Positions 17,087 to 20,315 of a DNA stretch of 64,000 bases are shown piece by piece (the stretch's first letter is position 1; the number at the start of each line of letters is the position of its first letter). The DNA is from Escherichia coli O157 typing phage 4. The stretch lies in the sequence record KP869102. The stretch is one strand, 5' to 3'. The notes under the pieces are model-generated. The model did no database searches. It was not told the DNA's origin and was given only the letters and a program-made list of their open reading frames with translations. Both the position numbers and the translations under genes were made by a program.

Positions 17087-17302
17087 ATGAAGATAGAAAT
17101 ATTTGGTGGAGCTGACAATACTCGTGGCCTGATTTACCTTGAATTCGATGAATCATACCTGCCAGAGGTGTTAAATATGGACTCTGTTGCTGATGCTTTG
17201 GGAGTAAGTCCTAAAGATCTCTACTCTGGTGCTGAGATTGATGGTTGGGAGGAGACCATGAACATTGATTTCAGTGAAGTAGGTGATGAACCACTGGACT
17301 GA
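17087..17302 (+). CDS. hypothetical acidic protein
   Basis: ORF track 71 aa; RBS AGGAGA upstream of ATG. Confidence 0.5.
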   Translation: MKIEIFGGADNTRGLIYLEFDESYLPEVLNMDSVADALGVSPKDLYSGAEIDGWEETMNIDFSEVGDEPLD

Positions 17303-18142
17303 CACACAATTAGCTACCCGGCTAAAGTGCTGGGAGCACCTATAACACATCTTTCAACTAAATTTCCTACCACCACAATCACTTACCTCCCACACATGAC
17401 TGTTTGCTTGTTTAGTGAGCAGTCATGCCTTGACATTCTTGCCTATCCTGATAAAATTAAGTTCTTCTCTTTTCTTTTACCGAGTAATTCGGGTTTTCTG
17501 TTCTCTTCGGTTTGAAGGGGTATGGAGATACACCTGAGTGAACAGGGTGAACAACCGAACATTTGGCTATGGCATTAGCATGGCGAAGCGGACGGGTGAC
17601 GAAAGAGGGGCCGGAGGACACCAGTCACTGCCATATGGTATATGGGTGATAACCTGAAGAGTCTGAATAAGTGTTTAAGTACCAGTCAGAGGAAAAGGTG
17701 AATGGTAGCCGAAGGGGGAGGGGGGTTTCTTGTATCTTTAATTTGTATATTATGTATACACTTGTAAACCAATCTCATTTGAATTTGTTTACCACACAAA
17801 GTGGATAGAGACAAATATTACCTATTAAACTTGAATTATTTATAGAAAATACCACAACACTACTTAAGTCTTTGATTTTACACACAAATCCTGCAGATAT
17901 TCACCCTCCATATTTAACATACTTGTAACATATTCCATACTCTACCTGCCCGATCAATTCACCCAACTACATCCCCATATTTTCCCTGTCTGTACTACCC
18001 CTGCCCCGCCGGGAGTCCCGTCATATCTGGCTTTCCAGCAAATATCACACCCACAAATATCATTGCCTGAAGAGGGTTTCGTCCCATAATACATGCCTTA
18101 CCTGAAGAGCGCTTCATATACCCCGTAAATTTTTTAATTGAC

Positions 18143-18172
18143 CCCCTCCCCGCCGCCGGAGGGGTCGGCTTT
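18143..18172 (+). terminator. possible intrinsic terminator hairpin (weak T-run)
   Basis: Stem CCCCTCC/GGAGGGG with loop CCGCCGCC followed by TCGGCTTTTCC. Confidence 0.25.
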
Positions 18173-18719
18173 TCCCACACAGACCTGAAGAGTCAGCCAG
18201 AAATATCTGAATGGACCCAATTCTGCCCTGTTATGAGCCGTAGCGACTGGAGTGCTGCCAGGCGGACGAAATGGGAATACTTCTCATTCTTATAACAATT
18301 CTCAAATATCGAGGCAGTGAGGCAAATTAATAGGTAAGGCCGTTCACATAGTGGCACAACATTTGCAGTCTATCTGATGTGGTTGAATGAGAATACCTAT
18401 CATTGTGAGAATAGTTATCATTACGGGCAATTTAACATAATACCCATTATGCGCACCACTGGCGATACATACAGGGATTGATAACATGAGTTACTGTTTA
18501 CGCATATAACAATTATATTTCTTATCATTTGTGTGGGATATAGTTAGCAGCCGATAGATTAGATATTGACCTGCGGACTTCTGACCGTCTAGACGTCTAA
18601 ACGCCCACACAACAAGGCTTATACATACATCGCTGAATGTAAACATGGCCGCAAAAATGCTACCATACAAGATTGTAAATTTTTCATGCAGCACTTGACA
18701 AAGAGGAGAAAAACTTGTC

Positions 18720-18762
18720 TGACACTTTAGACATACTGGTGACACAATATGACACTTTAGAC
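18720..18762. repeat. direct repeat, 2 x TGACACTTTAGAC
   Basis: Identical 13-mers at 18720-18732 and 18750-18762. Confidence 0.8.
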
Positions 18763-18779
18763 TTAATTGACATGCCTGA

Positions 18780-18956
18780 CTGTTTACGCTGTCACTATTC
18801 GCGCTATTACTATTCACTCCCTTTACTGTTCACGCTCTTACTGTTTACATGCTTAATGGTTTACATGCTTAATAGACTGCATGTCTAATAGTTTACATAG
18901 CTAACTGTTCACATACTTATCATTTACATGATTGACTGTTTACACAGAGATGATAA
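18780..18956. repeat. iteron-like array of TGTTTAC(A) motifs, including a tandem 16-bp unit
   Basis: (C)TGTTTAC at 18782, 18843, 18859, 18891, 18948 plus variants CATTTACAT, CTGTTCACAT, CTTTACTG; GTTTACATGCTTAATG twice in tandem at 18843-18874. Confidence 0.75.
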
Positions 18957-18963
18957 GCCATGA

Positions 18964-19234
18964 CATTCGTTTGCATGACAATAATTAACAAGATAACAAT
19001 TGACAAGCTAACAGCCAACAAGCTGACAATTAACTTGTTTACAATAGATGACATAATATAAAAGCAGGGCAACTATTAGAAGATCTATAGTTGCCTTGCT
19101 TGTTATGTCATGATTAACTAAATACAAGGCAACTATGATCTGATTAATAGTTTGCAAACAAACTATCACGGGGGTGATGGTTACTGCTTTTATATTATGT
19201 CGCGACTCCGTCGCGCCATGCCATTCGTTTGCAT
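18964..19234. repeat. 13-bp direct repeats CATTCGTTTGCAT bracketing the palindromic element
   Basis: Copies at 18964-18976 and 19222-19234. Confidence 0.8.
19050..19201. repeat. 152-bp element bounded by perfect 18-bp inverted repeats with nested palindromes (MITE-like or cruciform-forming)
   Basis: GACATAATATAAAAGCAG at 19050-19067 is the exact reverse complement of 19184-19201; internal inverted copies of AGGCAACTAT/ATAGTTGCCT and palindrome ATAGTTTG..CAAACTAT. Confidence 0.75.
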
Positions 19235-19850
19235 AGTTGCCTTATTGTTACAGATAAAATAATTGTATTGTTAATTATTTCTTATCTTTCTATTAGTCAT
19301 CTAATGATTCCAGTCAATATAGTAATGTACAGTAAACATTAGACGACTAAAGATTTATCTGCTTATAATAACTTACCGTGACAATTTCGGACTGTTTACG
19401 AAAAATGTTGGCACCTAAGCTGATTTATGTTATGCAGTTTACACGAATAATTATTTTATGCAGGTATTGACTATTCCATTATTCTATGGTTGGAATAAAT
19501 ACTTAGCAGACTATAGAATGGTGAGCGTACGTAAATTCTGAGATCTGGCGGCTATAGTTATACTCGATTTTTCACGTAGAGCACGCTTTTGTGGTTATGT
19601 AAGTGTATGACTTATAAAGATTTTTAGTTGTTGACAAGACACTGAAGATATGCATCAGGTTAAATTTTGTGCAATAGCTGCATTACGTGCAATTTTGGAA
19701 GGAAAAACGGGTAAAAATAGCCCTGCTACCACACAATGAAAAGTTATGCAATAGTTATTTTACATGTATATTTGTACAGTGTGTGGGGTTGATGGCTCGT
19801 CAATTATTCCACTTGCCAGGTAGGGCCGTTTATGGTAGGGGGAAGATCAG

Positions 19851-19876
19851 ACAAAAAGAAAGGGGCCTAAGCCCCT
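19851..19876 (-). terminator. intrinsic terminator
   Basis: Hairpin AGGGGC-CTAA-GCCCCT preceded on plus strand by an A-run (U-run on minus transcript), just downstream of the 19896 gene end. Confidence 0.55.
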
Positions 19877-19895
19877 TGATAATTCAGTTAAAAAA

Positions 19896-20315
19896 TTATA
19901 ATGATTCGTATATTTCAAAAATCCGATTTGCCAGGTCGTTACGGTACCGGAATTTTTCATCACGTTTGATCATAAGATCTTTATAGCCGTACTCTTTAAG
20001 CACTTCATTAACTTTATGGCGGCACACCTTCATATTATCCTGAGCGTCACCAATAAACCTGTTGCTATGGTGCATGGCTTTAATTTCTTCTTCCAGGACC
20101 AGGGCAACTATGCGGACCGGATCAAGCTGATAGGCGGTAACATCAATGCGGCATTGTAAACGGCTTTTTACGTCTGCCACCGGATATACTGCAACCTCTT
20201 CCCCGTCAACATTGACAATAATTAGTTTACCATCGATTTCGAATCCTTTCGCCGCCGGACCGTGACAAAAAGCGTTATCAAAGCTATATGCCGGATTATT
20301 AGATTTAATGTTCAT
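19896..20315 (-). CDS. hypothetical protein
   Basis: ORF track 139 aa; RBS GAGGTAAAAACACC before ATG. Confidence 0.5.
   Translation of the reverse strand: MNIKSNNPAYSFDNAFCHGPAAKGFEIDGKLIIVNVDGEEVAVYPVADVKSRLQCRIDVTAYQLDPVRIVALVLEEEIKAMHHSNRFIGDAQDNMKVCRHKVNEVLKEYGYKDLMIKRDEKFRYRNDLANRIFEIYESL

Follow-up and report, generated by a model that had tools for sequence, protein, structure and literature searches.

A conserved inverted-repeat element beside the genome end of vequintaviruses is a candidate structured non-coding RNA

Introduction

What does a perfect inverted repeat do in gene-free DNA close to the end of a phage genome, and is it the mark of a mobile element, a replication signal or a structured RNA? 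This question is raised by a 152-bp element in typing phage 4 of Escherichia coli O157 (sequence record KP869102), of which we analysed a stretch of 64,000 nucleotides (hereafter the window; positions are counted from its first letter). A preliminary description of the window had noted an exact 18-bp inverted repeat around a dyad-rich interior, bracketed by a 13-bp direct repeat, and had offered three readings, namely an insertion resembling a miniature inverted-repeat transposable element (MITE), a cruciform-forming origin element, or a structured RNA. Here we report that the element is fixed, single-copy and non-mobile. We propose that it is a strand-specific folded element and, as the most likely of the readings considered, a new structured non-coding RNA of the genome-end region, an interpretation to which we give a probability just short of even.

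Between 18400 and 19900 the window matches Escherichia phage JES2013 (KC690136; Vequintavirus, rV5-like) at 100% identity, and JES2013 record positions minus 85400 give window positions. The element sits in a gene-free gap of ~2.6 kb (17303-19895), bordered on the left by plus-strand genes that stop at 17302 and on the right by minus-strand genes that stop at 19896. In the rV5 genome paper this gap is labelled 'non-coding', bidirectional terminators are expected between genes 163 and 164, which correspond to the gap, with their location not found there, and the local change in GC skew is put down to the direction of transcription; the same paper describes a T7-like primase-helicase and a Pol A encoded by rV5-like phages (PMC3606486).

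Results

An exact inverted repeat encloses a stably folding, conserved sequence

The two arms of the inverted repeat, 19050-19067 (GACATAATATAAAAGCAG) and 19184-19201, are complementary at 18 of 18 positions and enclose 116 nt, in agreement with the preliminary description of a 152-bp element. When up to three mismatches were allowed, the arm was found at just these two sites in the 64 kb, where shuffled sequences are expected to hold 0.05, and none of 100 shuffles reached two. The 13-nt direct repeat CATTCGTTTGCAT is likewise exact, at 18964 and 19222, and is the core of a longer repeat that extends to 20 nt with 19 identical positions (18957-18976, DR1, and 19215-19234, DR2). The dyads reported for the interior are all present: AGGCAACTAT at 19127-19136 has its complement at 19087-19096 and again at 19233-19242, ATAGTTTG and CAAACTAT form a dyad at 19147-19167, and four of the six exact copies of GGCAACTAT in the 64 kb are clustered within 174 nt (19068-19241). 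An inverted-repeat scan of the whole window (seed 12, arms within 300 nt) returned six repeats in total, three of which lie inside 18980-19279. Of note, an outer inverted repeat (18980-19001 and 19258-19279; 22 nt, 82% complementary) encloses spacer, element and DR2 in JES2013, and dyad symmetry thus reaches beyond the element in this phage.

The statement that the element is bracketed by the direct repeats stood only in part. The repeats do flank the element, but they do not abut its arms as target-site duplications would: 73 nt separate the end of DR1 from the left arm, and DR2 in its 20-nt form starts 13 nt past the right arm. In a comparison of 13 phages, both arms and both direct-repeat copies, including the 13-nt core, were invariant and the distance from right arm to DR2 was constant, whereas the distance from the start of DR1 to the start of the left arm, 86 nt here, varied between 41 and 134 nt.

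In structure prediction, the 152 nt form an almost continuous long hairpin with side hairpins. The preliminary description had regarded a failure to fold stably as an argument against a structural role; the predicted fold is instead far more stable than those of shuffled sequences on either strand and as RNA or DNA, with z-scores of about -12 (-12.0 for plus-strand RNA, -11.3 for minus-strand RNA and -12.4 for DNA). Within the genus Vequintavirus (clade A), all 16 relatives align over 19050-19250, which at 98-100% identity is the best-conserved part of the whole gap, and the bin 19200-19249 is 99.9% identical across them. The stretch directly to the left of the element is the least conserved, with 5-11 of the 16 relatives aligning at 66-85% identity, and near-identical similarity to many relatives begins at 19048. 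Inside the element, the few sites that vary belong to loops, to bulges or to the long fold's tip (19102-19124). At this tip (window 19102), the phages TP5, phita32 and LL12 carry a 33-nt insertion, TTAACATCCTCGAGACGAAGGCTATGCCTGAGT.

Other functions were considered for the same stretch. Protein coding was rejected, as 1-nt indels in relatives disrupt the small open reading frames (ORFs) that cross the element; one such indel, in Murica, lies in the G-run of an inner hairpin (hairpin C, below). A dispersed operator was also rejected, GGCAACTAT being clustered locally and not scattered upstream of genes. No tRNA or tmRNA was found, and a search of the window against Rfam gave no match at gathering thresholds, just chance-level matches to eukaryotic miRNAs and snoRNAs with E above 0.4.

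Helices of a sister family show compensatory changes and one-strand G·U pairs

Elements of the same design were reached in other phage groups through searches with the flanking genes; these groups have no BLAST similarity to the window in this region. The alignment of one such sister family comprised nine copies, eight of them distinct, from Phapecoctavirus, Justusliebigvirus, Klebsiella phage KP13-26 and IMG/VR contigs. Its consensus fold consists of five helices, namely the closing arm helix, a first inner hairpin, the lower and apical stems of a second inner hairpin, and a GC hairpin immediately past the right arm. Covariation in homologs, which the preliminary description had named as a way of checking the structure, is evident in this family: 14 of the 53 pairs have changed on both sides, and all 421 cells of the alignment that take part in pairs form standard pairs (100%), compared with 92.6% in shuffled alignments, none of 500 of which scored as high. 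The covariation score was 0.251, compared with 0.105 in shuffles (0/500), and sliding the partners against one another lowered pairing to 23-53%. Four variants of the arm occur, and all are perfectly complementary (AAGCCA/TGGCTT, AACGCA/TGCGTT, ACCGCA/TGCGGT and AACACA/TGTGTT).

The types of pair distinguish the two strands. On the strand that reads inward from the terminal repeat, there are 42 G·U cells, spread over 10 pair columns, and no A·C cells, so that the opposite strand would carry 42 mismatches in their place. When the reverse-complement alignment was folded independently, it reached -54.3 as against -66.2 kcal/mol and 48 as against 53 pairs, with broken cells in three columns and a single G·U column. 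This pair pattern is the signature of selection on the single-stranded fold of one strand. In clade A, hairpins A and C, as read from the sequence, hold two G·T pairs and no A·C. Folding energies alone were also considered as a source of strand preference and were discarded, as the preference vanishes after correction for composition and becomes clear just from the pair types in diverged copies.

To link the window to this family, we used a covariance model built from the nine sister-family copies alone. The model's single match in the 64-kb window lies on the plus strand (19049-19221) and covers the full model length with 27.2 bits and an E-value of ~4e-5. With filters off, plus-strand scores were 24-27 bits at every clade-A locus and minus-strand scores 9-16 bits, the window element favouring the plus strand by ~11 bits, and clade B, a second group of Vequintavirinae described below, gave weak matches (8-12 bits) that were the best in their locus and lay in the right place and on the right strand. 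The window forms all 14 arm pairs of the model, eight pairs of one inner hairpin and five of the eight post-arm pairs; the two remaining model helices are replaced by the window's own hairpins A and B. The model-fitted alignment mixed both strands and was used row by row only. We regard the 27-bit score as good evidence of relatedness in design and in part of the sequence, short of proof of homology. Because the match coincides with identical placement, orientation and neighbouring gene, common ancestry of the window element and the sister family is likely, and the window would hold the form that this undescribed family takes in Vequintavirus, or else a structure that parallels it very closely.

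The element occupies a fixed place beside the genome end

Vequintaviruses have terminal repeats of 458/459 bp and a fixed packaging start (PMC6563267, PMC7471380). The records of HdK5 and YN3 begin and end with exact repeats of 459/458 bp that correspond to 18261-18719, and this segment of the window is the equivalent of the direct terminal repeat and hence of the physical genome end. Measured inward from the terminal repeat, the element starts at 330 bp in JES2013, 200 bp in HdK5 and 292 bp in YN3, and these differences are due to copy-number changes in arrays of short direct repeats that follow the terminal repeat immediately (18720-18950, plus strand). On the way from terminal repeat to element, there are two copies of TGACACTTTAGAC, then (T)GTTTACA/GTTCACA units that recur every ~16/31 nt, then DR1 and finally a spacer made of 24-nt TGACAA units. 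Copy number in the arrays differs among relatives, and indels between relatives fall there; TGTTTACA occurs 11 times in the window, where 3.6 are expected. An array of promoters in 18720-18950 was considered and rejected, as no acceptable -35/-10 pairs were seen by eye and a promoter scan gave 17 hits, near the shuffle expectation of 10.7 +/- 3.4.

The same position was found in two further groups. In UPEC06 (clade B), an exact 462-bp terminal repeat is followed by an element that starts 237 bp inward, and in Schickermooser (clade C), the element starts 200 bp inward of an exact 329-bp repeat, for which the Schickermooser paper states 328 bp. Where termini were checked, that is in Vequintavirus, UPEC06 and Schickermooser, the family lies 200-330 bp inside the direct terminal repeat of large E. 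coli myoviruses and upstream of a shared small gene. The UPEC06 record (MW250786) is labelled 'partial genome'; it has the exact 462-bp repeat at both ends and so appears to be complete to its termini. In this clade, the left copy of the flanking direct repeat falls inside the terminal repeat itself.

Clade B (A5-4, UPEC06, A7_1, W70, LTH01 and A73; unclassified Vequintavirinae) has an element of 103-114 bp with perfect and invariant arms (GACACTATAAAACGAG/CTCGTTTTATAGTGTC). As in JES2013, GTCGC...GTCGCGCCA comes after it, and the direct repeat CCATACTCTGGCAAT stands on its flanks. Like clade A, clade B combines a hypervariable left spacer with a conserved right side, and its inner hairpin occurs in three tip variants, each of which is still able to form the hairpin. 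The arms of the two clades differ at paired positions and stay complementary (AAAAGCAG/CTGCTTTT in A, AAAACGAG/CTCGTTTT in B). A73 has three copies of CCATACTCTGGCAAT rather than two (1102, 1205 and 1623 in its record), which implies a local duplication of ~100 nt. In clade C (Phapecoctavirus, Stephanstirmvirinae), the element measures 146 bp, combines an inner arm of 15 nt, which is perfect, with an outer arm of 5 nt, and folds on its plus strand with z = -10.7. Its interior and right arm are the sole part of the region that aligns (~80%) with phi92-like Justusliebigvirus and Klebsiella phages. Clades A and B have both conserved the direct repeats at the flanks, and similar GCTAATG repeats are visible on either side of the element in clade C. 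Pattern scans for a third clade with the right flank shared by A and B returned vequintaviruses only, a search of IMG/VR with the 15-nt arm pattern gave only chance single matches, and a scan of genome contigs gave one chance match, in a metagenome-assembled genome of the Gemmatimonadaceae.

Features of the element and its flanks

All features in this section lie on the plus strand unless stated otherwise. DR1 (GCCATGACATTCGTTTGCAT, 18957-18976) is followed by the hypervariable spacer (18977-19047), the length of which varies among relatives and the 24-nt TGACAA-phased units of which start at 18977, 19001 and 19025, in phase with TGACAT at 19049, where the left arm begins. The left arm, which would be the 5' side of the closing stem (19050-19067), is invariant in 17 of 17 clade-A copies, and the preceding AT is conserved too; together with T19049 it reads TGaCATAAT, an extended -10-like motif that is conserved in the same 17 copies. 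In Murica-type relatives (six loci), the TGACAA units give way to two terminator-like hairpins, GGTGACC-TTT-GGTCACC and, with TTTCTAT after it, CACCC-CTTC-GGGTG. As these stand directly upstream of the left arm, the element would there be a transcription unit of its own.

Inner hairpin A (19062-19101) has a 15-bp stem with one G·T and a 10-nt loop, and its variation is confined to the loop, apart from one change that converts the G·T to G-C. On the minus strand it is followed by TTTTATATTATG and is terminator-like, and a minus-strand terminator is annotated there in Murica. The variable linker at the tip of the long fold (19102-19124) leads to inner hairpin B (19125-19156; GGCAACTAT ... ATAG(T)TTGC with a bulge whose base is T or A among relatives), which could alternatively pair with hairpin A into one long helix. 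Inner hairpin C (19161-19182) has 9 bp including one T·G and a GGGG loop; it is terminator-like on the plus strand, was picked up by a terminator scan, and is separated by 5 nt from the T-run of the right arm (CTGCTTTTATATTATGTC, 19184-19201), the 3' side of the putative closing stem. The post-arm GC hairpin GCGAC-TCC-GTCGC (19202-19214) matches helix H3 of the covariance model, the helix of which the window forms five of eight pairs and which has three compensatory pairs in the sister family (Phapecoctavirus/phi92-type). DR2 (GCCATGCCATTCGTTTGCAT, 19215-19234) overlaps the fourth copy of GGCAACTAT (19233-19241, minus strand).

The neighbouring region

The gap is adjoined by an ORF of 139 aa (19896-20315, minus strand), homologs of which lie at the matching terminus-proximal place in Phapecoctavirus, a genus of a different subfamily, with 89% amino-acid and 84% nucleotide identity. 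The non-coding DNA around it does not align, and this conservation of the gene alone suggests gene exchange between subfamilies; the ORF is missing from HdK5/EdH4. On the other side of the terminal-repeat equivalent, in the gene-free stretch that corresponds to the right genome end, ACCTGAAGAG occurs four times (17654, 18066, 18101 and 18185) and may be the counterpart of the repeat arrays. A promoter-like site on the plus strand in 17430-17492 (TTGACA, 16 nt, TG, TAAAAT) is near consensus, with 11 of 12 positions, and is followed within ~25 nt by a terminator-like hairpin (17480-17492), just past the last plus-strand gene; the pair could specify an attenuator or a very short transcript. A further terminator-like structure of the plus strand, the GC-rich hairpin CCCCTCC...GGAGGGG with CTTTTCC behind it, borders the terminal-repeat equivalent on its left (~18143-18175). 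Finally, 18 'Campylobacter phage' records (MG0656xx; host given as C. jejuni) are ~92% identical to E. coli vequintaviruses in this region, and their host label looks doubtful.

Discussion

A proposed structured RNA read from the genome end

Among the readings offered for this locus, a structured RNA is the best supported, through covariation and one-strand G·U pairs in the sister family and through the model match that links the window to it. The inverted repeat would then form the stem that closes a non-coding element of several hairpins, fixed in place and present once, and the element would act as a single-stranded fold of the plus strand, since in the better-sampled sister branch G·U pairs are confined to the inward-reading strand and compensatory changes preserve each helix. 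Its most likely form would be a structured RNA of roughly 150-175 nt, presumably made by the host RNA polymerase reading inward from the genome end; in three of five sister lineages, the arm is directly adjoined by TATAAT, TACAAT or TAGAAT. At the genome end, such an RNA might prime or license replication, or it might mark the concatemer junction for the terminase. A bolder version, which we hold to be rather unlikely, would make the element a strand-specific nucleic-acid cofactor that is essential for genome-end metabolism in phages whose direct terminal repeats are short and that is common to Vequintavirinae and Stephanstirmvirinae. It could be an R-loop RNA or structured primer with which replication begins at the entering end, or else a label of the concatemer junction, in the form of an RNA or of a single-stranded hairpin, at which the terminase would cut and the repeat be regenerated.

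Covariation with strand-specific G·U pairs, here seen in the sister family, is shared with known structured RNAs of phages. The pRNA of phi29 is encoded near the genome end and has a closing helix and two hairpins. The present element resembles it in its ~150 nt, its closing helix formed by the ends, its two to three inner hairpins and its location near a genome end. It differs in having no sequence or Rfam match, and the phages themselves differ, these being myoviruses that package from concatemers with terminal repeats and phi29-like phages being protein-primed. The resemblance serves as a lead only.

Several observations weigh against an RNA. The promoter and terminator signals are inconsistent across the clades: the -35 at the element is weak or variable, VEcB and KP13-26 have no -10-like hexamer beside the arm, and clades B and C have no clean terminator. 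Were transcription to start from the -10-like motif within the left arm, the RNA would lack the greater part of this arm and the perfect 18-bp stem would go unexplained. In the literature on these phages, we found no transcriptome and no description of the element. The arm helix uses G·U in none of its 14 columns, compared with 10 of 39 in the other helices, and because of this the arms may carry an additional constraint on both strands, that is, as double-stranded DNA. The link to the sister family has its own weaknesses, as the 27-bit match is carried mainly by the arms together with a single inner hairpin and the hairpin past the arms, and reverse-strand self-matches of the sister palindromes score 22-39 bits, a range that covers the score of the window. 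Within clade A, neither strand is favoured after composition correction (z of -12.6 and -11.8), and the clade is near-invariant, so that its own compensatory change is limited to the arms (A compared with B) and the evidence on strand has to be borrowed from the sister family. Lastly, covariation cannot tell an RNA from single-stranded DNA.

A possible DNA signal at the genome end

This last point leads to the main rival of the RNA, a cis-acting DNA signal of the genome-end region in which the palindrome and the repeat arrays are part of an iteron-type origin or of a terminase recognition region. We consider this possible, though on the unlikely side. Such a signal could combine iterons with a hairpin on the displaced plus strand that serves as a priming site, similar to the single-strand initiation (ssi) sites of RSF1010 oriV, or it could be a recognition site of the cosB/pacB type. 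Its conserved distance from the terminal repeat in three phage groups, the short-repeat arrays in between (TGACAC, TGTTTACA and the 24-nt TGACAA units), the conserved flanking direct repeats with their GCTAATG counterparts in clade C, and the lack of a convincing promoter common to all clades are all in keeping with a DNA signal. The same holds for the arms, which are strictly Watson-Crick in every clade and whose motif recurs upstream as direct repeats, namely the in-phase TGACAA units and, in KP13-26, three copies of GCTAATAATA. The strand asymmetry fits a plus strand of single-stranded DNA equally well, G·T being the best-tolerated mismatch in DNA hairpins.

However, a symmetric role of the double strand or of a cruciform is contradicted by the 42 G·U and zero A·C cells of the sister family. 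Of the cruciform-forming origin element proposed at the outset, the adjoining arrays and the strictly Watson-Crick arms thus count in favour of an origin, and the strand asymmetry of the inner helices counts against a symmetric cruciform. The repeat arrays are, moreover, the least conserved part of the gap, and the GC-skew changes here are explained by transcription direction (PMC3606486).

Comparison with known systems cuts both ways. In T7, CCTAAAG units spaced 13 nt apart (positions 175-340) come after the 160-bp terminal repeat, and its concatemer junction thus shares with our phages a short exact terminal repeat and, immediately inside it, arrays of short tandem repeats (here 18720-18950). 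Processing of the T7/T3 junction is linked to transcription, with models that invoke hairpin ends and polymerase pausing, and a 'hairpin end' intermediate of T7 was reportedly described by Chung, Nardone and Hinkle in 1990. The T7 ends, on the other hand, gave no long perfect palindrome in our search, just inverted repeats of 18-22 nt with 72-78% complementarity, and T7 has nothing comparable beside its repeat. Direct-repeat arrays beside a large palindrome with candidate single-strand DNA hairpins are also a feature of RSF1010 oriV and G4-type signals, a comparison that we make from general knowledge. In RSF1010, the ssiA and ssiB hairpins act on opposite strands, whereas here the fold of one strand is selected. 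Packaging from a fixed end in vequintaviruses (PMC7471380) is a further likeness to T7, and the T7-like primase-helicase and Pol A of these phages (PMC3606486) suit the DNA signal in general, the primase-helicase also fitting the RSF1010 model.

Terminators and mobile elements

Back-to-back intrinsic terminators that insulate convergent transcription units are improbable as the function of the whole element. They would block transcription into the terminal repeat and into antisense genes in concatemers, and the identical arms would provide the U-rich tail for both directions. In agreement with this, the rV5 paper expects bidirectional terminators in this very gap (PMC3606486), hairpin A with TTTTATATTATG is the annotated minus-strand terminator of Murica, hairpin C with its T-run was detected on the plus strand by scan, and the arms have the A-tract/U-tract form of bidirectional intrinsic terminators, in which A-rich and U-rich tracts flank GC-containing stems between convergent units. 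In such terminators, however, the tracts enclose a short loop and not 116 nt of conserved structure. Both flanking units already have a terminator of their own beside the last gene (19877-19860 on the minus strand, 17480-17492 on the plus strand), the T-run stands 5 nt away from hairpin C, the sister clades B and C have no clean terminators at the arms, and the covarying post-arm hairpin falls beyond the supposed plus-strand stop. Moreover, it would be unusual for terminators to form the best-conserved 200 bp of a region, the conservation here being far above what termination needs, and the strand asymmetry argues for selection on the fold of one strand only.

A MITE-like insertion, with terminal inverted repeats and target-site duplications, is scarcely credible, although the perfect 18-bp terminal repeats, the flanking direct repeat, the ~150-bp size and the similarity to many relatives that begins exactly at the left arm give the element that appearance. 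It occurs at one place per genome in 117 phage records, the window contains only its two arm matches, and none of 5,426 complete E. coli genomes holds a copy. The sole 'plasmid' match, PLSDB CP057073.1, a 137.5-kb E. coli 'non-mobilizable plasmid' with 99% identity, is evidently a vequintavirus genome. Empty-site alleles in related phages were sought with an artificial 220-nt query from which everything between the two direct-repeat copies had been removed; it matched 119 records, and in the best 60 of these no empty site was found, all of them aligning in two pieces that span 420-514 nt, with 200-290 nt extra between the pieces. The direct repeat, 20 nt long, does not abut the arms, its left copy starting at a variable 41-134 nt before the start of the left arm, no transposase is present, and other clades carry the same layout with different sequences at the same locus. 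Single copy and the lack of empty-site variants had been named in advance as evidence against mobility, and on these grounds, with the same place in all 117-119 relatives and no host copy, we reject a mobile origin. An invertible switch was discarded as well, as all aligned relatives are collinear and the interior is never inverted.

Meaning for the biology of the genome end

The element belongs to a familiar kind, the conserved structured non-coding elements, and represents a new family of it, with no matching Rfam family and no description that we could find in the literature. What is unusual is its fixed place beside the direct terminal repeat across two phage subfamilies. In phages with short exact terminal repeats, the start of replication and the cutting and regeneration of the repeat are less understood than in cos or headful phages (2026 review, PMC13595956). 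The phages that carry the element include therapeutically used E. coli and Klebsiella phages, and with ~170 nt at a fixed place in both subfamilies it is discrete and experimentally tractable. The 'non-coding box' of rV5 would thus not be inert but would contain helices that are maintained by selection on one strand, and the element offers a concrete handle on the genome-end biology of these phages.

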